Shown piece after piece: positions 16,859-27,548 of a DNA stretch of 32,000 bases. The notes under the pieces are model-generated. The model saw only the letters and a program-made list of their open reading frames with translations, was not told the origin of the DNA and ran no database searches. The stretch covers positions 540,001-572,000 of the forward strand of contig NC_006624.1 in assembly GCF_000009965.1 (NCBI RefSeq), written 5' to 3'. Each line of letters starts with the position of its first letter. Position 1 is the stretch's first letter. The stretch is from Thermococcus kodakarensis KOD1. GTDB taxonomy: Archaea; Methanobacteriota_B; Thermococci; Thermococcales; Thermococcaceae. The translations under genes were made by a program, and so were the position numbers.

Positions 16859-16940
16859 ACTATCGGGGTCTGTCCGTCGTGAGTTTTAGGGAGGAACGTG
16901 AGTGAACCTCCCTCCATTTAAATCAACCCTCACGACGGAC
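16852..16940 (-). ncRNA. Candidate 3' part of a TnpB omega-RNA: a nested stem-loop scaffold (16940-16872) plus a flanking guide-like segment (16871-16852). The 5' extent inside tnpB is unknown.
   Basis: A perfect 12-bp inverted repeat, GTCCGTCGTGAG (16872-16883) with CTCACGACGGAC (16929-16940), encloses a 7-bp stem, AGGGAGG (16888-16894) with CCTCCCT (16907-16913). The structure straddles the tnpB stop codon (16886-16888). Confidence 0.45.
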
Positions 16941-18139
16941 TTGGGCTTCATCACGTTCAGTTCCCCTCTGGGTTCATTGGGGAGCAAATCATCAAGCTCA
17001 GCCCCGCTCAGGGCGACCCCAAGTCCCCGCACGAAAACGTTGAACGAACCAACAAACTGCCTGTCAGCCTCAAAACCACAGTTATGACAAACCACCCGCC
17101 CGTTTCGGGACTCCAACCAACTCCCACACACCGGGCAGGTGGACGAAGTGTAAGCAGGATTAACAAACTCGACAGGAACACGATAGGAAAGCTTTCCAAC
17201 GATTTTCTTCCAAGTAGCACGGGAGAGCTTCCTGTTGAACTTCCTCGAACCGTTCTGGAGCATTTTGAACTTGTTTAAATCCTCGAAGACAAAAACTGCA
17301 TCAGGGAACTCTCTTGAAAGCTGGACTGCAAGCTTGTTCAAATAATCCTCAATCCTGTTCCTTCTCCTCGTCCAGTATTTTTTAAGGAGAACTCCAATCC
17401 TCTTTGGAGCTTTCCGCTGAACGCTCTTCAGCCCGTCAATAATCCTGTCATAAGTCTCGGCAATCCTGTGTAGCTCGCTCAAGTCCACTCTAATCCAGCC
17501 TTTTTCAGGGTGAAAAATATCGAGGCTCGTTAAGTTACTATCAATACCGATTTTGATTCTTCCAGAGAACTCGACTTCTTTTGAGAACGTTAGTAGAACG
17601 TCGTTCTCCCTGATTATTAGTTCACCGACCTTCCAGTCCTTAACCCTTTCATAGAACCACTCCTTTGAGAAGTCCAGCTCGAGGTATTCCTCACGAGGCT
17701 TAACTGTGATTCGTATCCTTGAGCCTTCAACCTTCATTAGAGTTGTTTTCACCCTCACGAACTTTCTCTTAACGACTGGCTTCGCTCTTTTTCTCTTCCC
17801 TTTGAGGTAGTTCCCTCTCCAGCTTTTGAGGATTGAATAAGCGGTCTTTATAGCAGAATCAATGTAGTGCTTGGCGAAAGGCCAGTCCTTGAGGAGTTTG
17901 TTCCTTAATTCTCGCTTAAACTCATTCGACTGTGGAAAATACGGGATTAGGCGGGTCGTCTCATAGTAGTGATAATTCCTGCTTCCAACGGAATACCTGT
18001 GCGTGACTTTCTTCTCTCTCCAAGTCGTGTTCTCCGATATTTCATCAATTGCCCTCTGGAGAAGTCTTTGGTATTCTTTTAGGAACGAATTAACGTTCCA
18101 GTTGTGCGACATTCTGTATGTGAGAACAAGTTTAGTCAT
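16886..18139 (-). CDS. tnpB: TnpB (IS200/IS605/IS607 OrfB-type RuvC-like RNA-guided endonuclease family)
   Basis: 417 aa. Candidate RuvC triad residues lie in IGIDSNL, FVFEDLN and FEADRQ. Zinc finger CPVCGSW...CHNCGFE. The ORF appears intact. Confidence 0.9.
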
Positions 18140-18761
18140 TCTCGACCTCCTCGATTAGTTTTTTCATGCCCTTCTTGAGCTTTTTGTATTTGTGAGAACG
18201 CATTCCGTAGAGCTTTCCAGCGAAGTGCGAGATTATGGTTATCAAGTCTTCAATGAGTTCTTCTCGTGGGGGTTTTTCTTTCTCGTTGATTACGATTATC
18301 TCTGAACCGTTTTCCTTGAAGAAGAATTCGAGAGTTTTGAAGCCAAAGCGGGTGAGCCTATCTGGATGTGTGATGATGACTTTTGAGACTTCTCCTTTTG
18401 CGACGAGTTCGAGGAGCTTGCGATAATTTTTCCTCTTCTCGTTCAATCCTGAACCGATGTCTTTGAGTATTTGGACTTGCCAGCCTCGTTCTTTTGCGTA
18501 TTGCTTGATAGCTTCAACCTGTCTTTCCAAGTCGTCTTTTTGTGTGTGGCTTGAGACTCTCGCATAGCCAATGATTAGGCCTTTTTCTTCGCTTATGCCG
18601 AGAAGTCTTTTTATTTCGCTTTCTGGTATTCTCCTTCGCCCGCCGGGTGTTCTAATGGTTTTGATTTTCCCTTCCTTATCCCATTTTTGGATTGTTTTTG
18701 GATGAACTCCGAGGATTTCGCTCGCCTGCTTAACCGTGTAAAGCTTCTCTTTCACTACCAT
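18132..18761 (-). CDS. tnpA: IS607-type TnpA serine recombinase with an N-terminal MerR-like HTH
   Basis: HTH segment [26 protein letters not shown] and resolvase catalytic motif [22 protein letters not shown] 18761 is preferred over the track's GTG 18779, because the TATA box at 18785-18793 would place the transcription start near 18762 (a leaderless mRNA). Confidence 0.88.
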
Positions 18762-18784
18762 ATACTCACAATTAATCACAAAAA

Positions 18785-18821: not shown

Positions 18822-18879
18822 GGCCTCAGCGATAGCTGGTGTCCTCACCGCTCGGACCCGAAGCCACTCATCACGGGCC
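18822..18879 (-). ncRNA. C/D box sRNA candidate (2'-O-methylation guide)
   Basis: Minus strand reads GGCC-C-GTGATGA(C)-GTGGCTTCGGGT(12 nt)-CCGA(D')-GCG-GTGAGGA(C')-CACCAGCTATCG(12 nt)-CTGA(D)-GGCC. Both spacers are exactly 12 nt, and the terminal GGCC/GGCC can pair as a 4-bp stem. The C box contains the stop codon of the upstream ORF. Confidence 0.55.
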
Positions 18880-19329
18880 TCTTCTCCGGATGAACTCCCT
18901 GGACTCAACCACTCTGCCATTTTCAATGCGGTACAGCTTTATAACCTCTGCCCCAAGGGTCTCCCTGCGGTAGGCGAGGAGGTAGTCTATGAAGTTCCGT
19001 ATCTGATAGCGGGTTATTGAGTCCCCGACGTATTTGGGCTCATAGAGAAGAATGAGCTTGTCCCGATTTTCTTCCAGCCAACCGTAAAGCTTTTTCCGTT
19101 CTTCTTTCGAGCGAGAGAGCGGGTTTAATATTAGATACGCATCAAAGCCTGGATTCTCAAGGGGGTCGCCGATGAAGACATCTCCATCAACAACGAACGG
19201 AAGTCCTTCCGCCAGAATTTTGTATCCCTCTCTAGCCCACTCATTGATGAATATCCTCGCTATTCTCCGAGGGCTTCCCGTCATCAGGATTCTCCCCGAT
19301 TTAAGATAAACGAGATCACTCAGCTTCAT
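18871..19329 (-). CDS. Hypothetical protein (152 aa)
   Basis: Protein-like composition and ATG start; I recognise no motif. ILMTGSPRRIARIF faintly resembles a degenerate P-loop context, but no Walker A motif is present. Confidence 0.55.
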   Translation of the reverse strand: MKLSDLVYLKSGRILMTGSPRRIARIFINEWAREGYKILAEGLPFVVDGDVFIGDPLENPGFDAYLILNPLSRSKEERKKLYGWLEENRDKLILLYEPKYVGDSITRYQIRNFIDYLLAYRRETLGAEVIKLYRIENGRVVESREFIRRRGP

Positions 19330-19467: not shown

Positions 19468-19512
19468 CCCCTAGACCCACACCATAATGACAAACCTTTC
19501 AGGGGTGTTCCC

Positions 19513-20805
19513 ATGAAGAAAGCTGTCTTTGCCCTGTTGTTGATAGGGCTTGTGGGATTCAGCGTAGTGGCCAGCGGCTGTATCGGCGGTGGCGGAGGCG
19601 GATCCGAGAAGATAAAGATTCTGTACACGTACACGGGGTCCTTTGGAGACGCGGCCAAGGGTAAGCAAGCGACTCAAGCACAGCTCCAGCAGGGGGCCTG
19701 GGTGATCTACCAGGTTGCTGGAGGAACGGGTCTGGGCGTTTTTGAAGCCATTAACGATTATCTCAAGGCTAACAACAAGAAGATGGGTCCCCCGTTCGCT
19801 ATTGGTGTTGATTCAGCCCAGGATTGGATCAAACCCGGTGCAATAATAGCAAGCATGATGAAGCGCGTTGATGTCGGTGTTTACAACGCCGTCAAACAGG
19901 CAGAAGAAAACAAGTTCGAGGGTGGCGTCGTTGAGCTCGGTCTCAAGGAGGGTGGCGTTAAGCTCTCCACAATAGACGATGTAAAGGCCATGTTCAATGC
20001 CCTCCCCGAAGACACCAAGAAGAAGAAGCTCCAGGAACTTGGCTTCAACAGCGAAGATGAGCTCTTCCAGTTCCTTGAGGAGACGAGAAACCAAGTTCCC
20101 GACTGGATATGGCAGGCCGTTGATGAGCTTCAGAACAAGATAATAAACGGGGAGATAGTTGTCCCCAAGGCCACAAGTAAGGACCAGATAGAGCAGCTCA
20201 GGAACGCCGAGGACTGGGCGGCTATGGAGAACCTCGCCAAGGAATGGGCAAAGAACGAGCCCAAGGCACAGACCTACTTCAACGAGACCCTCAACCAGAG
20301 GGAGAACACCAAGAAGATAGCGATCGTTTATGATGTTGGTGGCAGGGGTGACCTGAGCTTTAACGACATGGCCTACCTGGGCGCCTCAAGGGCCGCAAAG
20401 GACTTCGGACTTCAGATTACTGAGCTCCAGAGCAACAGCGAGAACGACTACCTCCCCAACCTCAGGAGCCTTGCCAAGAGCGGTGAGTACGACATAATCA
20501 TCGCAGTCGGCTTCATGATGACCAACGCCGTAAAGCAGGTCGCTCAGGAGTACCCGAACCAGAGGTTCGTCATTATAGACGGCTACGATCCAGAAATGCC
20601 ACACAACGTCCAGATGGTTCTGTTTAAGGAGAACGAGGGATCTGCCCTTGCGGGGGCTCTGGCTTCGCTCATAGCCCTCAACGACGGCAAAGATACCATC
20701 GGAATAGTCCTCGGCATGGAGATTCCGGTCCTCTACAAGTTCGAGGGAGGCTACCGCTTCGGTGCTTACTGGGGACTTGACTACTACGAGAACCACAAGA
20801 AGTGA
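19513..20805 (+). CDS. BMP/PnrA-family ABC transporter substrate-binding lipoprotein (nucleoside-type) with apparently circularly permuted domain order
   Basis: Signal peptide plus lipobox-like VVASGC, then a Gly6 linker. Family motifs are present but in swapped order: YTGSFGD..KGK, QVAGGTGLGV, IGVDSAQD and SMMKRVD come first. KKIAIVYDVGGRGDLSFND, FVIIDGY, ENEGSALAG and LGMEIP..FEGGYRFG come last. Confidence 0.85.
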   Translation: MKKAVFALLLIGLVGFSVVASGCIGGGGGGSEKIKILYTYTGSFGDAAKGKQATQAQLQQGAWVIYQVAGGTGLGVFEAINDYLKANNKKMGPPFAIGVDSAQDWIKPGAIIASMMKRVDVGVYNAVKQAEENKFEGGVVELGLKEGGVKLSTIDDVKAMFNALPEDTKKKKLQELGFNSEDELFQFLEETRNQVPDWIWQAVDELQNKIINGEIVVPKATSKDQIEQLRNAEDWAAMENLAKEWAKNEPKAQTYFNETLNQRENTKKIAIVYDVGGRGDLSFNDMAYLGASRAAKDFGLQITELQSNSENDYLPNLRSLAKSGEYDIIIAVGFMMTNAVKQVAQEYPNQRFVIIDGYDPEMPHNVQMVLFKENEGSALAGALASLIALNDGKDTIGIVLGMEIPVLYKFEGGYRFGAYWGLDYYENHKK

Positions 20806-20844: not shown

Positions 20845-22371
20845 ATGGAAGAAAAAACGCCGATACTTGAGATGAGGGACATCGTCAAGGTTTATCCCGA
20901 CGGCACTAAAGCCCTTCACGGGGTTACCGTTCAGGTTTATGAGGGCGAGATACTTGGTCTCCTCGGTGAGAACGGTGCTGGAAAAACGACTCTTATGAAG
21001 ATCCTCTTTGGAATGCTCAAACCAACAAATGGTAAAATCTTTCTCAGGGGGAAAGAGGTTCGGTTTAAAAGCCCCGCCGACGCCATAGCGAACGGTATCG
21101 GCATGGTTCACCAGCATTTCACGCTCGTTGATGTTTTTACGGCCCTAGAGAACATTATCCTAGGTATGGAGGGTCACGGCTTATTCTCCAAGATAGACCT
21201 AGAAAAAGCGCGTGGAGAGATCAAGGCCCTCATGGACGAGCTGAACTTTCAGGTCCCCCTCGATGTCCCAGTGGAGAACCTCCCCGTCGGCGTTCAGCAG
21301 AGGGTCGAGATACTGAAGATGCTCTACCGAAACGTGGACATACTGATCCTCGACGAGCCCACGGCTGTTCTAACGCCAATAGAGGTCAAGGAGCTCTTCG
21401 CTGTTCTAAGGAAGCTAAAGGCCCAGGGCAAGACTATAATCTTCATCAGCCACAAGCTCAATGAGGTCATGGAGATAACGGACCGCGTCACAGTTATAAG
21501 AAAGGGCAAGGTGATCGGGACTGTTAAGACGAGCGAGGCAACTCCTCAGCTTCTAGCGAGAATGATGGTCGGCAGGGACGTAGTCCTTAGAATACAAAAG
21601 CCTCCAAAGGAGCCTGGAAACACGGTTCTTAAAGTTGAGAACCTGTGGGTCAAGGGCGATCGCGGAGAGGAAGCCGTAAGGGGAGTTTCCTTTGAGGTCA
21701 GAGCGGGGGAGATATTTGGAATAGCGGGTGTTGAAGGCAACGGTCAGAGCGAACTGATAGAGGCCATATCTGGCCTTAGGAGAGTCGAAAAGGGTAGGAT
21801 ATACCTCAATGGAGTCGACATAACCGGCAAAAGTCCCAGGGATCTCTACGACATGGGTTTTGCACACATACCGGAGGATAGAACCCACATGGGGCTCGTA
21901 ATCGAGATGAGCGTAATGGAGAACTCGATTCTCGGAATGCACTGGAGAAAGGAGTTCTCACGTGGCTTTGGGCTTATAGACTGGGGCAGGGTCAAGAAAC
22001 ACGCTAGTGAGCTTATAGAGGAGTTTGAGATAAGTGCCCCTGGTGTGAATGCACCAGCGAAGAGCTTAAGCGGTGGAAACCAGCAGAAACTCATCGTTGC
22101 CAGAGAAGTCAGCAAAAAGCCAGAGTTTATAATCGCGGCACAGCCTACAAGAGGCGTTGATGTGGCTTCAACCGAGTACATCAGGAACTACCTCGTGAAG
22201 CTCAGAAACGAGAACAAGGCGGTTCTCCTCGTCTCGGCTGATCTCGACGAGGTTCTCCAGCTGAGCGACAGGATGGCAATCATGTACGAGGGGCAATTTA
22301 TGGGGGTTGTTAAGCCCGAGGAAGTTACCGAGGAGCAGATCGGCCTTATGATGGGAGGTGTGAAAGCATGA
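20845..22371 (+). CDS. ABC transporter ATP-binding protein with duplicated ATPase domains (CUT2/RbsA-NupO type)
   Basis: Walker A GENGAGKTT and Walker B ILILDEPT. The second cassette has GVEGNGQSE, signature LSGGNQQK and IAAQPTRGVD. Confidence 0.9.
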   Translation: MEEKTPILEMRDIVKVYPDGTKALHGVTVQVYEGEILGLLGENGAGKTTLMKILFGMLKPTNGKIFLRGKEVRFKSPADAIANGIGMVHQHFTLVDVFTALENIILGMEGHGLFSKIDLEKARGEIKALMDELNFQVPLDVPVENLPVGVQQRVEILKMLYRNVDILILDEPTAVLTPIEVKELFAVLRKLKAQGKTIIFISHKLNEVMEITDRVTVIRKGKVIGTVKTSEATPQLLARMMVGRDVVLRIQKPPKEPGNTVLKVENLWVKGDRGEEAVRGVSFEVRAGEIFGIAGVEGNGQSELIEAISGLRRVEKGRIYLNGVDITGKSPRDLYDMGFAHIPEDRTHMGLVIEMSVMENSILGMHWRKEFSRGFGLIDWGRVKKHASELIEEFEISAPGVNAPAKSLSGGNQQKLIVAREVSKKPEFIIAAQPTRGVDVASTEYIRNYLVKLRNENKAVLLVSADLDEVLQLSDRMAIMYEGQFMGVVKPEEVTEEQIGLMMGGVKA

Positions 22372-23402
22372 ACGTCAAAGGGTACTGGAAGCCCCTGGCA
22401 GAGAGTATCCTGGCAATCCTGATAGGGGCAGTGATAGGGGCCATAGTCCTCTGGCTAAGCGGATACAGCGCCAGTTCTGCGTACTACTGGCTTATAGTTG
22501 GCTCCCTCGGTTCTCTCGACGGCATAGCCGAAACCCTGGCAAAGTCCGCCCCGATAATGCTCACGGCCATAACGTTCGCGCTGGGCGCAAGAACGGGTCT
22601 TTTCAACATCGGTGCAGAGGGATCCGTTTACTTTGGGGCAATCGCTGCGATAATAACAACGCAGTACATTCCCAACCCACTCATTGGGCTCCTGGCGGGT
22701 CTGATAGTCGGCGCGCTCTGGCTCCTCCCTGCCGCGATCCTCAAGGTTTATCGGGGGGTCCACGAGGTCATATCGACAATAATGCTCAACTGGATAGCCC
22801 TCTATCTCGTCAGCTGGCTGGCTGTAAGCGTCTACTACAATCCGAGGGATCCGAACAGTACCCTCTCGATTCCCCCGAGCGCTAGGCTCCCGCTCTTAAT
22901 GGAGGGCACGAGCCTTTCCCTCGCCTTCATAATAGCCGTATTCACCGCTATCATTGTGTATGTGATAATGTGGCACATGAAGCTGGGCTACGAACTCAGG
23001 GTAAGCGGACAGAACCCGAGGGCCGCCGAATACGGCGGAATCAGTCCAAAGAAGGCTACGATATGGTCTTTCCTGCTCGGGGGTATGACCGCGGGTCTGG
23101 CAGGGGCCGGGATTGTGATGGGAACACCTCCGAGCTACGCTATAACCCAGGGATTGGCCAACATCCAGAACTACGGCTTTGATGGAATAGGCGTGGCCCT
23201 CGTGGGCAGGAATCATCCACTTGGGATAATATTCTCTGGAATCCTCTTCGGTGCATTGAGCGCCGGAGCGACCGCAATGCAGCAGCATGCCCACGTTCCA
23301 CTCGAGATGATCAAGGTCATTGAGGGAATAATCATCATTGCCGTGGCGGTTCCTGGTCTCTACGACCTGACAACCAGGTGGTTCCGGAGGGAGAGGGCAT
23401 GA
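22368..23402 (+). CDS. ABC transporter permease (first of two)
   Basis: 344 aa polytopic membrane protein. ATGA overlap with the ATPase gene stop. Confidence 0.85.
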   Translation: MNVKGYWKPLAESILAILIGAVIGAIVLWLSGYSASSAYYWLIVGSLGSLDGIAETLAKSAPIMLTAITFALGARTGLFNIGAEGSVYFGAIAAIITTQYIPNPLIGLLAGLIVGALWLLPAAILKVYRGVHEVISTIMLNWIALYLVSWLAVSVYYNPRDPNSTLSIPPSARLPLLMEGTSLSLAFIIAVFTAIIVYVIMWHMKLGYELRVSGQNPRAAEYGGISPKKATIWSFLLGGMTAGLAGAGIVMGTPPSYAITQGLANIQNYGFDGIGVALVGRNHPLGIIFSGILFGALSAGATAMQQHAHVPLEMIKVIEGIIIIAVAVPGLYDLTTRWFRRERA

Positions 23403-24310
23403 ACGAGACGATGATAATAAGCCTCGTCCTTGGTTCCCTCTCAGCAATGGTTCCAATAGCACTGGTCAGCATAGGGGCGACGATAAGCGAGAGGGCTGGC
23501 GTGGTCAACATCGGATACGAGGGAATCCTGATGTTCTCGGCCTTCTTTGGAACGATGATAGCCGAGTGGGCCGGCAATGGATGGGTTGGACTCCTGGGAG
23601 GAGCGCTGGTTGGACTCCTCCTCGGTGCACTACATGGTTTCCTGACGGTCTACCTTAAGGGTGACCATGTCATTCCTGGAATCGGCCTGAACCTCTTAGG
23701 CTACGGTAGCGTGGCCTTCGGAATAATGGCCTATTGGGGAACGGCAGGACAGCATCAAGTTCCCGACACAGTCAAGGTCGAGCCGCTCTGGAGGGACGCA
23801 TTCGGCAACTCACTGAGCCCAATGGTGGTGATAACCATAGCAATAGCCATCGTCTCCTGGTGGGTTCTGTTTAAGACCCCCTTTGGGTTGAGGATCCGCT
23901 CCGTTGGAGAGAATCCCGAAGCCGCCGACGCCCTGGGAATAAACGTTGAGCTGTACAGGTTCACAGCGGTTTTAATAGCCTCCGCCTTAGCGGGAGTGGG
24001 GGGAGCCTACCTCAGCGTGGACTGGCTCGGGACGGTTACCAAGAGCATAGCAGCCGGAAGGGGATTCATAGGACTGGCGAACATGGTGTTCAGCAACTGG
24101 AACCCGCTGGTAGCCCTTGGTGGGGCGTTCCTGTTCGGTTTCTTTGACAACCTGTCATTCTACATCCAGAACAATCCCTGGCTTGCTGGAACGATACCGT
24201 GGCAGTTCATAGCGACACTCCCCTACGTGGTTACTCTCCTGGTGGTCGCGGGAATAATAGGAAAGGCAAAACCGCCGAAGGCGGACGGAAAACCGTACAA
24301 GAGGGAGTGA
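23399..24310 (+). CDS. ABC transporter permease (second of two)
   Basis: Polytopic membrane protein. ATG 23399 forms an ATGA overlap with the upstream stop and follows GGAGGGAGAGGG. The track's GTG 23378 is less likely. Confidence 0.85.
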   Translation: MNETMIISLVLGSLSAMVPIALVSIGATISERAGVVNIGYEGILMFSAFFGTMIAEWAGNGWVGLLGGALVGLLLGALHGFLTVYLKGDHVIPGIGLNLLGYGSVAFGIMAYWGTAGQHQVPDTVKVEPLWRDAFGNSLSPMVVITIAIAIVSWWVLFKTPFGLRIRSVGENPEAADALGINVELYRFTAVLIASALAGVGGAYLSVDWLGTVTKSIAAGRGFIGLANMVFSNWNPLVALGGAFLFGFFDNLSFYIQNNPWLAGTIPWQFIATLPYVVTLLVVAGIIGKAKPPKADGKPYKRE

Positions 24311-24316
24311 TGTCCT

Positions 24317-25318
24317 CTACTTTTTCATTATTACCCCAAGGGCAGTTCCGAGCACTATCCCCGTGAGCAGCGAAAGCAGGATGTACCGTTCGGTGTTTGT
24401 TCCCGTTTCTTTTCTGGTTTCCTGGGGTGTTTCTCTGAGGCTTTCACCTTTGAGTGCCTCTATGATGGCAGCTGTATTCTTCACCAGCCACTCCGTGTAG
24501 TTGCCCGAGCTCCAGAAGACCGTTATTCCTGCAAGCGGTTTCTCGCTCTTCTCGGCCAGCTCCATCATGGCCTTCTTCATTTGATCCGGACTGTCGAGGC
24601 CGTACACGAGAATGTCCGCTTCCTTGGCTTTCTCAACGAGCGTGTCAACGCCCTTGGCCGGGACTTCCTCCTCAGGCTTCAGGGCCTCAACAGCCTTAAT
24701 TCCAAGCCACTCAAGGGCGTACTGGTCGGGCGGCATCTGAATGACTGCGGTGGCGTTTGAGTTGATGAGGGCCCTGTACGCCTCAACTATCCCCAGGACT
24801 CTTGCTTTAAACGCCTCAAACTGGAGCCTGTACTCGTTTTCCCTTGCAGGGTCGCTTTGAATCAGCGCTTCCTCTGTTGCCTCCGCTATCGCGATGGCGT
24901 TGTATGGGTCGAGCCAGACGCCGTGTGGGTTGTCCTTCTCGTTGTACCAGTGCTCCTTGAGGTATCTGAAGCCGTATTTTTTGTAGTCGTCCACGAGGAG
25001 TATCTTTCCGGCAATCTCGCCGTTCTCCTTGAGTTCCACCATCCGCTTCTCGACCGGAAGGTGGCCACCGGTGGTCACTATCACACTGGCCCTCTGGACG
25101 AGTTCAACCTGCTCCGCTGTCATCTGGTAGTCGTGGGGGTCGACGCCGGGGGGTATTAGGACCACTACGTCAACCCCAGGGAAGGCCTCCCTGACTATCG
25201 AGCCAAGCGGCCCTATCGTGGCCACTACCAGTGGCTTCTCTCCGCTGGCCGTTGCTGGGGGAAAGAAGAGCCCGCTTAGAGCGATTACAACGGCTACAAT
25301 TAACAGTGCCCTGCGCAT
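24317..25318 (-). CDS. TroA/ZnuA-like (cluster 9) metal-binding protein with a signal peptide and a C-terminal TM anchor
   Basis: N-terminal signal ALLIVAVVIALSGLFFPPATASG. Metal-ligand contexts GVDPHDYQ and NPHGVWLDP. C-terminal hydrophobic helix YILLSLLTGIVLGTALGVIMKK. Confidence 0.75.
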   Translation of the reverse strand: MRRALLIVAVVIALSGLFFPPATASGEKPLVVATIGPLGSIVREAFPGVDVVVLIPPGVDPHDYQMTAEQVELVQRASVIVTTGGHLPVEKRMVELKENGEIAGKILLVDDYKKYGFRYLKEHWYNEKDNPHGVWLDPYNAIAIAEATEEALIQSDPARENEYRLQFEAFKARVLGIVEAYRALINSNATAVIQMPPDQYALEWLGIKAVEALKPEEEVPAKGVDTLVEKAKEADILVYGLDSPDQMKKAMMELAEKSEKPLAGITVFWSSGNYTEWLVKNTAAIIEALKGESLRETPQETRKETGTNTERYILLSLLTGIVLGTALGVIMKK

Positions 25319-25415
25319 GTTAGATCACCCTAATCCACCATAGCGCCCCCCCCTTTAAAAGCCTTCCACAAAAAACATAAAAACTTCAGTTTTTCAATTT
25401 ATACTCGGTGATAAC

Positions 25416-27548
25416 ATGAAGAAAGTATTTGCCGCAATAATAATTCTGGCAATACTGGGAATTAATGCAACCCTTGCCGCGCCCGTTGAGAACGGCACTG
25501 TGTACATAAGCGAGAACGTAAAGGTCCAGATACACCCGAACGAGGAACTTCTTGGAATAGTCTACTACCTGGCCTTCGGCAACGACACCTTTGTTATAGA
25601 CAGGGGGGACTATATAGACGAAGTGGAAGCCCATTTCGGGAAATACAGGAACTCAACGGCTGTGATTCTCCTTAGGGACTACCTCTCACGTTCTAATAGA
25701 TTTACATGGAAGGACACGTACTTAGCCCGAATTGAGATGCTGCTCGTACGCTGTTCAGAGCCCCCGGAGCTTAAGATACCCGAATATTTAGAAGAGTATT
25801 ATTCTGAAGAGGGTGTACCAGAGTATTACCGCGAGTATTTCAACTGGTTTAAGAACGAATTCCTGCCGGCCCTGAGAGAGTTTGCCAACGAAACCGACTT
25901 CATGGAGTTTTACAGGACTCATCAGGATTACTACATGGAAGACCTAAGGCTCTACGGAGGAGCTCTTTCACTCATTCCGCCCGACGAGTTTATGGAGGAG
26001 CACGCCGGTGTCTCCAACGTCACGTACGTCTTCTTCCACCCGTATCTGGTTGCCATCCATGGCCACAGCCTGACAACCACGGAAAACAACAGGACGGCAT
26101 GGGGGGCTGCGGGATTCCTTCCGCTCGTGAGGAGGGACCCTCAGAGGACGGTGTGGAGCTACAAAACCGCCCGCGACACCATGATGGGACTCCCCCTCAA
26201 CAGGGACCTCATAAACAGCACCGGCCTCGACGAACTGCTCTATCTGAACTTCATCTACCACGAGCTGGGACACGACGTCACTATTCCTGTACTGAACACC
26301 CTGGACCTGTATACCTACTCTTACGTGATAGACGCCGCGAGGGACGATATGCCTTACCTCACCACCTACGACGGTCACTATGTCGGCCTTACTATGATCT
26401 ACGAGGGCTTTGCGGATGCTTGGGCAGATTACGCCATAAGCCACGTCAACCACAACTACACCCTCCTTGCGATGCAGATGCAGAAGGCGTGGGGAGAGTT
26501 CTGGGTCGAATGGCTTTACAACGAGATTCAGAGCTGTGCTCTCGACGTTAAAAGCGGGGAGCTCAAAAACATCTCCCTCTGCGTTCCCCGCGCGCTGGAG
26601 TCCCTTGAGAAGTTCGCGTCCCCCGAAAACGTCACCAAGGTATACAACCTTGAGGTGCCGGTTACCCCCGTAAGGGCCCTCGATAAAGGATGGTTTGGTA
26701 ACAGAGTCGTTGTAATCTATGGAACGGCCAACCTAAGCCCAACTGAAAGTAGAAACATCAAAAGCTTCGCCGATGAGGTTGCAGAAATCCTGAGGAAATT
26801 CTACAGAAGAAACGGCGGAATAGACGACGTTGTAGTCAAAGCCGACGTGAACGTTACCCCTTCGGATTTAAGTTCCCACCTTGTACTAATCGGAACCCCC
26901 TCGACCAACAGGATCGTTGACATCTTCGACGACTACTTCCCGATTCGGCTTGAGAGGGCCGGCGAGGGATGGAGAGTAATCCGCGAGAACAACGTCACCA
27001 GTTTCCTCCTCCTTGACGAGGAAAGCCCCCTCAGGGCAGTCTACGGCAATACCTCCGTCGCGGCTGGTGGGTTCCAGACGGTCGACAAAGCGGCCCTTTT
27101 GATGGCGTCCGTAAACCCATACAACACGTACTATTACGTGGTCTGGATCGCGGGAACGGACGAAAACATGACTAAGTTGTTCAAAAACCCCACCTACTAC
27201 CTGAGCAGCTACGAGATATGGACGCCCGGGGCCATTGAGGTCGGGTTCTACAACAAACCCCTCGCGGAGAGGCTCAGCGAGTCGTTCAACGCAACCCTTC
27301 TATTAAGCCCGCAGACGACCACAACGACCACAACAACCGTCAGGACTGACACTACCACAGTGCCCGAAACAACCACTACGTCCGTCGATTCCTCAACCAC
27401 AACAACTCCCACGACCTCGCCATCTAAAAGTCAAACAACGAGCCCGGTAGAGACTTCAAGAACTACCGCGACGGACAAAAACATGTGCGGACCAGCGGCT
27501 CTCGTTGGCCTAGCAATAATACCGCTTCTCATCAGAAGGAGAAGGTAA
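25416..27548 (+). CDS. Large secreted glycoprotein with an HExxH zinc-metalloprotease motif, a Thr/Ser/Pro-rich stalk and a CGP-CTERM-type membrane anchor
   Basis: Signal peptide MKKVFAAIIILAILGINATLA. HELGH at nt 26259-26273. More than a dozen N-x-S/T sequons. Thr-rich linker at nt 27306-27485. C-terminus CGPAALVGLAIIPLLIRRRR, with CGP at 27486-27494. Confidence 0.8.
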   Translation: MKKVFAAIIILAILGINATLAAPVENGTVYISENVKVQIHPNEELLGIVYYLAFGNDTFVIDRGDYIDEVEAHFGKYRNSTAVILLRDYLSRSNRFTWKDTYLARIEMLLVRCSEPPELKIPEYLEEYYSEEGVPEYYREYFNWFKNEFLPALREFANETDFMEFYRTHQDYYMEDLRLYGGALSLIPPDEFMEEHAGVSNVTYVFFHPYLVAIHGHSLTTTENNRTAWGAAGFLPLVRRDPQRTVWSYKTARDTMMGLPLNRDLINSTGLDELLYLNFIYHELGHDVTIPVLNTLDLYTYSYVIDAARDDMPYLTTYDGHYVGLTMIYEGFADAWADYAISHVNHNYTLLAMQMQKAWGEFWVEWLYNEIQSCALDVKSGELKNISLCVPRALESLEKFASPENVTKVYNLEVPVTPVRALDKGWFGNRVVVIYGTANLSPTESRNIKSFADEVAEILRKFYRRNGGIDDVVVKADVNVTPSDLSSHLVLIGTPSTNRIVDIFDDYFPIRLERAGEGWRVIRENNVTSFLLLDEESPLRAVYGNTSVAAGGFQTVDKAALLMASVNPYNTYYYVVWIAGTDENMTKLFKNPTYYLSSYEIWTPGAIEVGFYNKPLAERLSESFNATLLLSPQTTTTTTTTVRTDTTTVPETTTTSVDSSTTTTPTTSPSKSQTTSPVETSRTTATDKNMCGPAALVGLAIIPLLIRRRR

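Follow-up and report, generated by a model that had tools for sequence, protein, structure and literature searches.

Evidence for a circularly permuted BMP/PnrA-family nucleoside-binding lipoprotein, TK0657 (NupD), in an operon that behaves as an exchangeable cassette in Thermococcus

Does TK0657 (NupD) of Thermococcus kodakarensis KOD1 carry the two halves of a BMP/PnrA-family binding protein in swapped order, and if so, how could such a protein have arisen and come to share a chromosomal site with canonical relatives? The gene occupies positions 19513-20805 on the plus strand of the window (the whole stretch of DNA that was analyzed, 32 kb), and its translation is 430 aa long. A preliminary description of this DNA had proposed a BMP/PnrA lipoprotein in which the C-terminal half of the family (block B) precedes the N-terminal half (block A). 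The rearrangement in NupD itself was reported in 2025 as a "flipped domain arrangement", together with genetic evidence of nucleoside uptake (PMC12628685, Appl Environ Microbiol 2025), so the permutation is less new than that description had assumed; circular permutation is not the term used there, and no word built on 'permut' occurs in the available text of the paper. The chain divides into the following segments.

19513-19581, plus strand: signal peptide, ending in the lipobox-like VVASGC with Cys23 and N-terminal despite the permutation
19582-19608, plus strand: Gly-rich tether IGGGGGGSE, spanning from the lipid-anchor Cys to the first strand
19609-20256, plus strand: block B, corresponding to the C-terminal half in canonical BMP proteins (Pfam Bmp 154-286)
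20257-20310, plus strand: fusion linker NEPKAQTYFNETLNQREN, ~18 aa, leading from the old C-terminus to the old N-terminus, with no canonical counterpart
20311-20802, plus strand: block A, corresponding to the N-terminal half in canonical BMP proteins (Pfam Bmp 4-149)

The lipoprotein signal and lipobox read MKKAVFALLLIGLVGFSVVASGC in translation, and lipid modification is predicted. The aligned permuted homologs all have A20, S21, G22, and C23, and the SGC lipobox is present in nearly all canonical homologs compared; the signal peptide is homologous to those of the canonical orthologs and shares 22 of its 23 aa with T. profundus. The tether varies in composition and in length (8 to ~50 aa) among permuted homologs and has pLDDT <50 in the TK0657 model. 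Block B also includes two features typical of Thermococcales homologs, the helical insert and the C-terminal helices, and contributes F44, D100, and K117 to the predicted binding pocket, K117 being located in the pocket by PMC12628685, in the text available. The fusion linker is conserved in permuted proteins (N261, R263, N265, and T266 are invariant) and forms a short strand and a short helix with pLDDT ~90 in the AF2 model. Block A runs to a new C-terminus at ...DYYENHKK.

Searched whole against Pfam Bmp (PF02608), TK0657 scores 171 bits in two stretches (cut-off 24.1). When the halves were scanned separately, aa 24-262 matched Bmp 154-286 of 301 and aa 263-430 matched Bmp 4-149 of 301, giving the two partial matches with swapped model coordinates that the preliminary description had anticipated. 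The protein thus covers the complete domain, though not in collinear N-to-C order; it is a BMP/PnrA family member with a variant topology, and the swapped order is no ground for excluding it. The same picture emerges against the canonical crystal structure 4pev_A, where query residues 264-419 align to 50-210 and residues 33-231 to 219-413, each stretch with an independent E-value of ~2e-30, and a sequence search of the PDB returned an identical swap against PnrA (2fqw), Lbp (7x0r), and pneumococcal PnrA structures including 6y9u.

The canonical proteins of T. peptonophilus and T. barophilus, searched by tblastn against the whole 32 kb window, matched in three pieces only: the signal peptide at 19513-19584, canonical residues ~203-411/433 at 19612-20238/20256 (T. 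barophilus residues 219-433 at 19612-20256), and canonical residues 38/54-196/212 at 20317-20796. The window contains no leftover copy of either half, in line with the preliminary description, and its coordinates, the ORF, and the connecting segment of ~45 aa that it quoted are all correct. Comparison of the junctions agrees with its further claims that the chain is cut where A and B are normally contiguous and that the old termini are fused: the canonical proteins run ...YRFGVKWAEDYYKQK|TGKDVNIDVLYQYTG across the loop that joins A and B, and the permuted protein ends at ...DYYENHKK* and starts past the lipobox at ...SEKIKILYTYTG.

The AF2 model of TK0657 has pLDDT 84 and pTM 0.84, and that of its canonical sister from T. 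peptonophilus has pLDDT 88.5; the secondary-structure elements of the two match after rotation (block B, the short strand and helix of the new linker, block A). With Foldseek, whose alignments follow chain order, the permuted model aligned to 4pev, 2fqw, and 7x0r over 154-161 columns only, compared with 353-392 columns (target-normalized TM 0.79-0.86) for the canonical model in the same search. Taken together, the alignments support the view that this BMP/PnrA lipoprotein is circularly permuted. Its chain would keep the pocket residues and the bilobed fold of type I binding proteins; for the fold, this prediction rests on the AF2 confidence, the secondary-structure order, and a published superposition of a NupD AF3 model on PnrA (RMSD 0.73 Å; PMC12628685, available text).

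We compared TK0657 with canonical members of known structure, namely T. pallidum PnrA (2FQW), S. pneumoniae PnrA (6Y9U), B. burgdorferi BmpD (6SHU), C. thermocellum Lbp (7X0R), and A. pernix 4PEV. Like these, it matches over both blocks (28-40% identity in Foldseek, sequence E-values to 3e-63) and has a lipoprotein signal, the pocket motifs, a tandem-ABC ATPase, and two BPD_transp_2 permeases; unlike these, its chain runs B-A, its tether enters the C-lobe, it has an extra linker of ~18 aa, and a sequential structure aligner covers one half only. A precedent is TpMglB-2 (Tp0684) of Treponema pallidum, a circularly permuted ligand-binding protein of 'Type Ic / Cluster Bc' that has retained ligand binding and for which a link between permutation and membrane tethering was raised as a possibility (PMC4990184). 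Both proteins are natural circular permutations of type I tethered ABC binding proteins. However, TpMglB-2 belongs to the glucose/galactose MglB family and TK0657 to BMP, and the PDB sequence search gave TK0657 no match to the MglB family or to Tp0684. The permutation of TpMglB-2 placed the first three N-lobe strands at the C-terminus and introduced a further, fourth hinge crossing, whereas TK0657 is cut mid-chain in the C-lobe, after Bmp model position ~150, and so is not of the Type Ic / Cluster Bc kind. The TpMglB-2 permutation is old and its permuted part poorly similar, whereas permuted and canonical forms of TK0657 are ~72% identical and occupy the same locus in sister species. The two cases share the principle and differ in family and cut site. 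A literature search for formal descriptions of circular permutation in the BMP family returned, apart from the TpMglB-2 precedent, nothing but the 2025 paper on NupD.

Permuted order was found in 29 of the 120 closest database homologs, all from Thermococcus, and canonical order in the other 91, which include proteins from Thermococcus, Palaeococcus, and Pyrobaculum. The identical TK0657 protein is present on 59 contigs, the genomes behind the 29 permuted homologs are independent of one another, and complete genomes of at least six named species, as well as many MAGs, carry the swapped order. To the question whether the permutation is lineage-wide or strain-specific, which the preliminary description had left to a comparison of orthologs, the answer is neither: the permuted genes form a monophyletic set in a patchy subset of Thermococcus species. 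All trees were neighbor-joining trees of 15-115 sequences. Among 115 homologs, 28 of 28 permuted sequences were monophyletic, and with 42 taxa, block A alone and block B alone each recovered the permuted clade in 40/40 bootstraps, at similar distances to the canonical clades. Since the permuted proteins form one clade, the trees argue that the permutation arose once, from a Thermococcaceae gene, with halves of shared ancestry. Whereas the available text of PMC12628685 treats the NupD arrangement as an archaeal variant, most archaeal homologs here are canonical, including those of sister species, Pyrobaculum, and the Aeropyrum structure 4PEV.

One pair of loci proved uninformative. A permuted (L007) and a canonical (L011) locus are binned in one MAG, which would place both types in a single genome; their swapped blocks and operon genes are ~70-74% identical, and beyond these the two resemble each other solely in a 61 nt patch of 87% that we took as the signal-peptide region. 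Their upstream regions differ, so the shared MAG may reflect mixed binning.

Downstream of a 39 nt spacer, TK0657 is followed by an intact ABC operon, as the preliminary description had stated. The genes of the locus are listed here.

18871-19329, minus strand: left flanking gene of 152 aa (p152), no Pfam family, tracks the genome background
20845-22371, plus strand: ABC ATPase TK0658 (NupA), two ABC_tran domains (Pfam), part of the permuted-type cassette
22368-23402, plus strand: permease 1 (TK0659), BPD_transp_2 (Pfam), part of the permuted-type cassette
23378-24310, plus strand: permease 2 (TK0660), BPD_transp_2 (Pfam), its 3' end marking the right cassette boundary
24317-25318, minus strand: right flanking gene, ZnuA-family binding protein (Pfam ZnuA), tracks the genome background

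The order p152, binding protein, ATPase, permease, permease, ZnuA holds at all loci examined, permuted and canonical, and the TK0657 operon and all related loci encode the tandem-ABC ATPase and two BPD_transp_2 permeases of a NupABC-type importer. The operon genes diverge by type. Mean identity of the TK0658-type ATPase is 89.7% within the permuted type and 79.4% between permuted and canonical types, that of permease 1 is 81.5% and 60.5%, and that of permease 2 is 87.8% and 67.0%, respectively. Monophyly of the permuted type received 100% of bootstraps for the binding protein, the ATPase, and each permease, and 0% for the flanking genes. The flanks instead pair KOD1 with T. peptonophilus, AM4 with L014 (a member of the 90% cluster that contains T. 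gammatolerans), and 21S7 with MAR1, each at 100%. In KOD1, p152 is 91% identical to that of the canonical T. peptonophilus and 50-69% to those of permuted-type genomes, and the ZnuA gene is 92% and 57-67% identical, respectively. The transitions are sharp at both ends. On the left, the signal-peptide segment tracks the flank and not the gene body in the AM4/L014 and 21S7/MAR1 pairs; on the right, nucleotide identity rises from ~60-70% to 82-96% at the 3' end of permease 2 in three sister pairs. Because the body of the binding-protein gene, the ATPase, and the permeases split 100% by type and the flanks group otherwise, the ~4.7 kb operon behaves as an exchangeable cassette.

Several alternative accounts of these observations were weighed. 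That the swapped order stems from faulty assembly or annotation, or from a rearrangement peculiar to one strain that left the gene inactive, is so improbable that it can be set aside. The adjoining IS607-family element (16886-18779), the sole hint of local instability that we found, is missing from the other permuted loci examined and was rejected on that ground as the cause of the rearrangement. The order recurs independently in the complete genomes and MAGs described above, the ORF is intact, its motifs are invariant in 23 sequences, and the published knockout and point-mutant phenotypes use the numbering of this ORF (PMC12628685, available text); the swapped order is no assembly error. We also consider it highly improbable that TK0657 is a chimera with halves drawn from different BMP paralogs, as was once suggested for part of TpMglB-2. 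Block A is indeed somewhat better conserved than block B (0.90 and 0.85 identity among permuted proteins, 0.66 and 0.54 to the outgroup), but canonical proteins show an equal asymmetry, and each block alone places the permuted clade inside Thermococcaceae at equal depth (identity to the main and barophilus-type clades 0.74/0.75 for block A and 0.72/0.69 for block B), with the bootstrap support per block given above. How a single ancestral gene was reordered is a separate matter. The most likely route leads from a tandem duplication through in-frame fusion to deletion of both outer halves, as inferred from the existence of possible intermediates: among the other closest 50%-identity cluster representatives (n=148), there are 12 ABAB, 2 ABABAB, and 0 BA proteins. 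Excision of the mature-coding segment as a circle and its reinsertion, or fission, reordering, and refusion of two ORFs, is a possibility that we would rate well behind. It would suit a signal peptide that stayed put, as cut-and-paste of the mature region needs fewer steps, and neither a remnant in the window (tblastn) nor a close ABAB relative among the top matches was found near Thermococcus. Against it, tandem BMP-BMP fusions are common (14 of those 148 representatives) and supply the required intermediate, and duplication followed by deletion is the generally favored route for natural permutations. The ABAB and ABABAB fusions come from uncultured archaea (for example, Candidatus Kariarchaeaceae and Promethearchaeota), some of them Asgard archaea, and contain a collinear B-linker-A segment to which the permuted query aligns in one piece (for example, query 43-419 to P0205 273-644). 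They differ from TK0657 in having complete flanking A and B halves, are 31-41% identical to it, and include none from Thermococcales; they exemplify a possible intermediate state and not the actual ancestor. The duplication and truncation put forward in the preliminary description is thus plausible and unproven. The +1 frame of the fusion-linker DNA encodes a T/S/P/R-rich peptide like the Ser/Thr-rich tethers of canonical proteins, and could be read as a frameshifted relic of a second copy's tether; we rejected it as evidence because AAC/GAG/ACC/CCC-rich codon usage alone yields such a pattern.

A different objection concerns what moved. The permuted operon could have been inherited vertically in one species clade, with the flanks (FtsY, p152, and ZnuA) exchanged instead, an account that we regard as unlikely. 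The region is mosaic, since the DUF4932 gene of KOD1 is 82% identical to that of T. profundus and 54% to that of T. peptonophilus, and the KOD1 signal peptide resembles that of T. profundus. However, AM4 and L014 are 87% identical over 7 kb upstream (eight syntenic genes) and again beyond ZnuA, and identity falls to 60-80% from the body of the binding-protein gene to permease 2 alone. The tree of permuted-type operons also conflicts with the flanks: the flank sister of T. henrietii is L001, and its operon groups with L005. The species background was inferred from three flanking genes and at most 7 kb of upstream synteny. AM4 is a close relative of T. gammatolerans, and T. kodakarensis one of T. 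peptonophilus and T. stetteri, which likewise counts against flank exchange.

With regard to function, the motifs DVGGRGDLSFND and IIDG in block A, GSF, GVDSAQD, and MMKRVD, and the motif residues of block B, are invariant in 23 permuted sequences. TK0657 is not a member of the NCBIfam equivalog NF047927 (ABC_BMP_B6, putative vitamin B6 binding), against which it scores 82.4 bits in three stretches (cut-off 400). The available text of PMC12628685 links TK0657-TK0660 to nucleoside uptake by genetics, with a phenotype on nucleosides upon nupD deletion and the gain-of-function mutations T39M and K117E; these phenotypes were observed mostly in an evolved strain bearing a mutated allele, and the paper describes the NupD pocket as conserved and the growth phenotypes as nucleoside-dependent.

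Our joint reading, which we hold to be very probable, is that TK0657 is a permuted nucleoside-binding BMP/PnrA protein whose permutation had a single origin and whose gene belongs to a recombining cassette of ~4.7 kb. NupD would be a functional membrane-tethered protein that still works with the downstream importer (the tandem-ABC ATPase and two permeases). The cut would lie within a C-lobe surface loop that leads from a helix (FEGGYRFGAYWGLDYY) to the following strand (IKILYTY), and ~18 new residues would connect the original C-terminal helices to the original first strand (KIAIVYD). As the signal peptide and lipobox Cys appear to have remained at the front of the permuted chain, the lipid tether would enter the C-lobe and not the N-lobe. 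The permuted gene, most likely a product of the duplication, fusion, and truncation route described above, would have moved with its own diverged ATPase and permeases, and in several Thermococcus lineages the permuted and canonical cassettes would have displaced one another, in one direction or the other, at one locus. The exchange would be by homologous recombination, with probable crossovers at the signal-peptide end or start codon on the left and at the 3' end of permease 2 on the right.

More tentatively, and with the balance against it, one could view the permuted and canonical importers as ancient, structurally incompatible allelic cassettes, a trans-species polymorphism repeatedly swapped and with both forms kept by selection. 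Each cassette may pair a binding protein with co-adapted permeases; selection may act through tether geometry and permease docking, or through viruses or vesicles pressing on a surface-exposed protein. The sharp edges at the signal peptide and permease 2 end may then be the footprint of long-term flank recombination around a non-recombining core.

Mapping of the cut site and linker was not found in the available text of PMC12628685, nor was any mention there of a single origin, a shared locus, or whole-operon cassette exchange. The permuted clade and its single origin, the locus shared by permuted and canonical forms, and the split between operon genes by type and flanks appear to be new, and the published impression of the flipped arrangement as a general archaeal trait, as conveyed by the available text, is corrected. 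The tolerance of the BMP scaffold in nature for a cut at this site is useful for sensor design. Natural circular permutations are mostly old, and it is difficult to set the permuted form against the original one. In this case, the permuted and canonical binding proteins, ~72% identical and encoded at one chromosomal site in sister species, make a ready-made matched pair, and T. kodakarensis, a host of the permuted form, is genetically tractable and naturally competent. With it, one may ask how moved chain ends and a moved lipid tether affect Venus-flytrap folding, stability at 85 °C, and permease docking. The interspecies exchange of the whole operon would be a clean case of cassette-type allelic replacement in hyperthermophilic archaea.

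The product of the forward-strand ORF at 19513-20805 (430 aa) matches exactly the protein quoted in the preliminary description, is 100% identical to P0001, a KOD1 database protein annotated 'ABC-type transport system, probable periplasmic component', and is TK0657, named NupD in PMC12628685. The locus of this substrate-binding protein (SBP) contains the following features.

Features at the permuted SBP locus of KOD1 (window coordinates)
16886-18779, minus strand: IS607-family element, upstream of the SBP, between FtsY and p152
16886-18139, minus strand: TnpB-like protein of this element (OrfB_IS605 / Cas12f1-like TNB)
18132-18779, minus strand: serine recombinase of this element (Resolvase + HTH_17/MerR)
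18871-19329, minus strand: p152 gene, 152 aa, without Pfam family, upstream of the SBP
19513-20805, plus strand: permuted SBP, 430 aa
20845-22371, downstream of the SBP: tandem-ABC ATPase (Pfam)
22368-23402, downstream of the SBP: BPD_transp_2 permease 1 (Pfam)
23378-24310, downstream of the SBP: BPD_transp_2 permease 2 (Pfam)
Beyond permease 2, opposite strand to the operon: ZnuA-family gene (Pfam)
25416-27548, plus strand: DUF4932 protein gene, with Thr-rich C-terminal tail and hydrophobic anchor

FtsY and p152 are adjacent in every other Thermococcus locus showing both, and the IS607-family insertion is therefore KOD1-specific.

Pfam Bmp (PF02608) scores 171 bits on TK0657, split over two stretches; when the halves were scanned separately, aa 24-262 aligned to model positions 154-286 of 301 and aa 263-430 to positions 4-149, the two partial matches with swapped coordinates anticipated in the preliminary description. 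Sequence alignment with the canonical crystal structure 4PEV paired its residues 50-210 with TK0657 264-419 and 219-413 with TK0657 33-231 (E-value ~2e-30 for both), and 7X0R, 6Y9U/6YAB and 2FQW are swapped relative to TK0657 in the same way. These alignments support circular permutation of a BMP/PnrA-family protein both as observation and as interpretation. Apart from the signal peptide, a window-wide tblastn search with canonical Thermococcus proteins matched the two swapped blocks and nothing else; a remnant of a duplicated half was detected nowhere in the window, in agreement with the earlier statement about the flanks.

The AF2 model of TK0657 (pLDDT 84.1, pTM 0.84) runs from block B (E H E H E E H E E and six helices) through a new linker to block A (E H E H E H E E H E H), and the canonical T. 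peptonophilus protein, modeled at pLDDT 88.5, contains the same elements, A then B, with one additional short helix in B. In these models the new chain ends would lie in the C-lobe between a helix and a strand, and the lipid tether would now enter the C-lobe. In Foldseek, which aligns in chain order, the permuted model covered 154-161 columns of 4PEV, 2FQW and 7X0R; the canonical model covered 353-392 columns at target-normalised TM 0.79-0.86.

The A-B boundary of canonical Thermococcales proteins reads ...YRFGVKWAEDYYKQKTGKDVNIDVLYQYTG, the permuted proteins terminate in ...YRFGAYWALDYYKNHKQ* and, past the lipobox and a variable tether, begin ...KINILYTYTG, which places the cut in the 'KTGKD' loop. 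Long-tailed canonical proteins end in ...AIRNAKTWQEMEELAKKWEKSS*, and at the junction of old C- and N-termini the permuted proteins run on as ...LAKEWAKNEPKPETYFNKTLNERQNTKK-IAIVYDVGG. This junction carries ~18 new residues, conserved among permuted proteins and modeled confidently by AF2 as a short strand plus helix. Cys23 and the signal peptide have kept their N-terminal place. In the alignment, most permuted proteins have an N-x-S/T sequon (NET, NKT or NES) in the linker (NET in KOD1, aa 257-259, window 20281-20289), some having DEK in its place, and the motif is a possible N-glycosylation site on this surface protein. In P0028, a metagenomic permuted homologue, residues 16-54 hold a tandem duplication of lipobox and tether (VVASGCISGGTSSSSQSGT then VVASGGISGGTSSSSQSGT), the second copy without Cys, and small tandem duplications thus do happen in this gene region.

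Of the top 120 homologues in the database, 91 are A-B and 29 share the B-A order, the latter coming from T. kodakarensis, AM4, 21S7, T. eurythermalis, T. nautili, T. henrietii and many MAGs; this recurrence rules out an artefact. Members of the clusters extend the B-A order to T. celericrescens, T. aciditolerans and T. prieurii. In a tree of un-permuted A+B alignments from 115 homologues, the 28 permuted proteins grouped together within Thermococcaceae as a single long-stemmed clade. Their monophyly was recovered in 40/40 bootstraps from block A alone and likewise from block B alone, and both blocks lie at similar distances from canonical clades; both halves therefore derive from one Thermococcaceae gene, and the protein is a genuine permutation of single origin and not a chimera. 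In the top 150 representatives of clusters at 50% identity, from 1.84 billion proteins, B-A occurred only in the Thermococcus cluster, the other 148 including 128 A-B, 12 ABAB and 2 ABABAB. P0122, P0146 and the twelve ABAB proteins (P0129, P0130, P0145, P0152, P0153, P0162, P0178, P0202, P0205, P0218, P0229 and P0252) carry two or three complete BMP domains in chains of 668-1459 aa; some come from Asgard archaea, named sources being Candidatus Kariarchaeaceae and Promethearchaeota MAGs, and we found no description of this architecture in the literature searched. A model in which tandem duplication, fusion and truncation would give a B-A protein needs fusions of this kind as its intermediate. 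None close to Thermococcus was present among these 150 representatives, and this route is plausible but unproven.

FtsY, p152, SBP, ATPase, two permeases and ZnuA are common to all loci examined, and operon and flanks differ in their affinities.

Identity of KOD1 proteins to those of other Thermococcus loci
Canonical T. peptonophilus, FtsY / p152 / ZnuA: 94 / 91 / 92%
Canonical T. peptonophilus, SBP / ATPase / permease 1 / permease 2: 76 / 81 / 62 / 68%
Permuted-type AM4, 21S7 and T. eurythermalis: p152 58-69%, ZnuA 57-62%, operon genes 80-90%

In bootstrapped trees, support for monophyly of the permuted type was 100% for all four operon genes individually and 0% for the flanking genes. The flanks join genomes that differ in type, namely KOD1 with T. 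peptonophilus, AM4 with L014 (whose protein cluster includes T. gammatolerans), 21S7 with MAR1 (100% each) and L005 with L011 (85%). These trees indicate that the operon is an exchangeable cassette. Permuted and canonical types have diverged roughly to the depth of the deepest canonical split sampled (L009 versus the rest), and the permuted type has shallow internal diversity and a tree in conflict with the flanks. These data are read most simply as an old cassette, evolving on its own, whose spread among species via homologous replacement came later; the alternative is a long-maintained polymorphism of the two types. The Thermococcus MAG JALSNG01 holds a permuted-type (L007) and a canonical-type operon (L011) on separate contigs with unrelated upstream sequence, and could represent mixed strains in the bin or one genome with two loci.

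In three sister pairs, sliding-window identity put the left limit of the divergent segment at the signal-peptide end (AM4/L014, 21S7/MAR1) or the start codon (KOD1/T. peptonophilus), which accounts for permuted proteins having nearly the same signal peptides as canonical ones in related genomes. The right edge is the permease 2 3' end, where identity rises from ~60-70% to 82-96%. In KOD1, the signal-peptide region (19489-19602, including ~24 nt upstream) has 87.7% nucleotide identity to canonical T. profundus, exceeding any neighbouring segment, with 22/23 signal-peptide residues identical; the region differs from that of T. peptonophilus and resembles a small recombination patch of its own. 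The DUF4932 protein is 82% identical to T. profundus and only 54% to T. peptonophilus, whereas the adjoining ZnuA gene is 92% identical to the latter, which marks a second mosaic junction near 25320-25415, just right of the transporter locus.

Several findings speak for a functional protein. Pocket motifs are invariant across 23 permuted sequences. In PMC12628685, the NupD AF3 model superposes on PnrA (RMSD 0.73 A), deletion of the evolved nupD allele abolishes growth on guanosine, inosine and cytidine, T39M and K117E are gain-of-function substitutions, and NupD is regarded as an archaeal variant. The core of the permutation finding is therein already published; 'permut' is absent from that paper and the term circular permutation is not used. 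TpMglB-2, the glucose/galactose-binding protein of Treponema pallidum (PMC4990184), is an earlier example of a naturally permuted type I binding protein, of another family and with a different cut. We found no account of the operon as an exchangeable cassette in the literature searched. What the present analysis adds is the single origin and patchy distribution of the permuted form, its status as a positional allele of the canonical form in sister species, and its co-transfer with diverged permeases.
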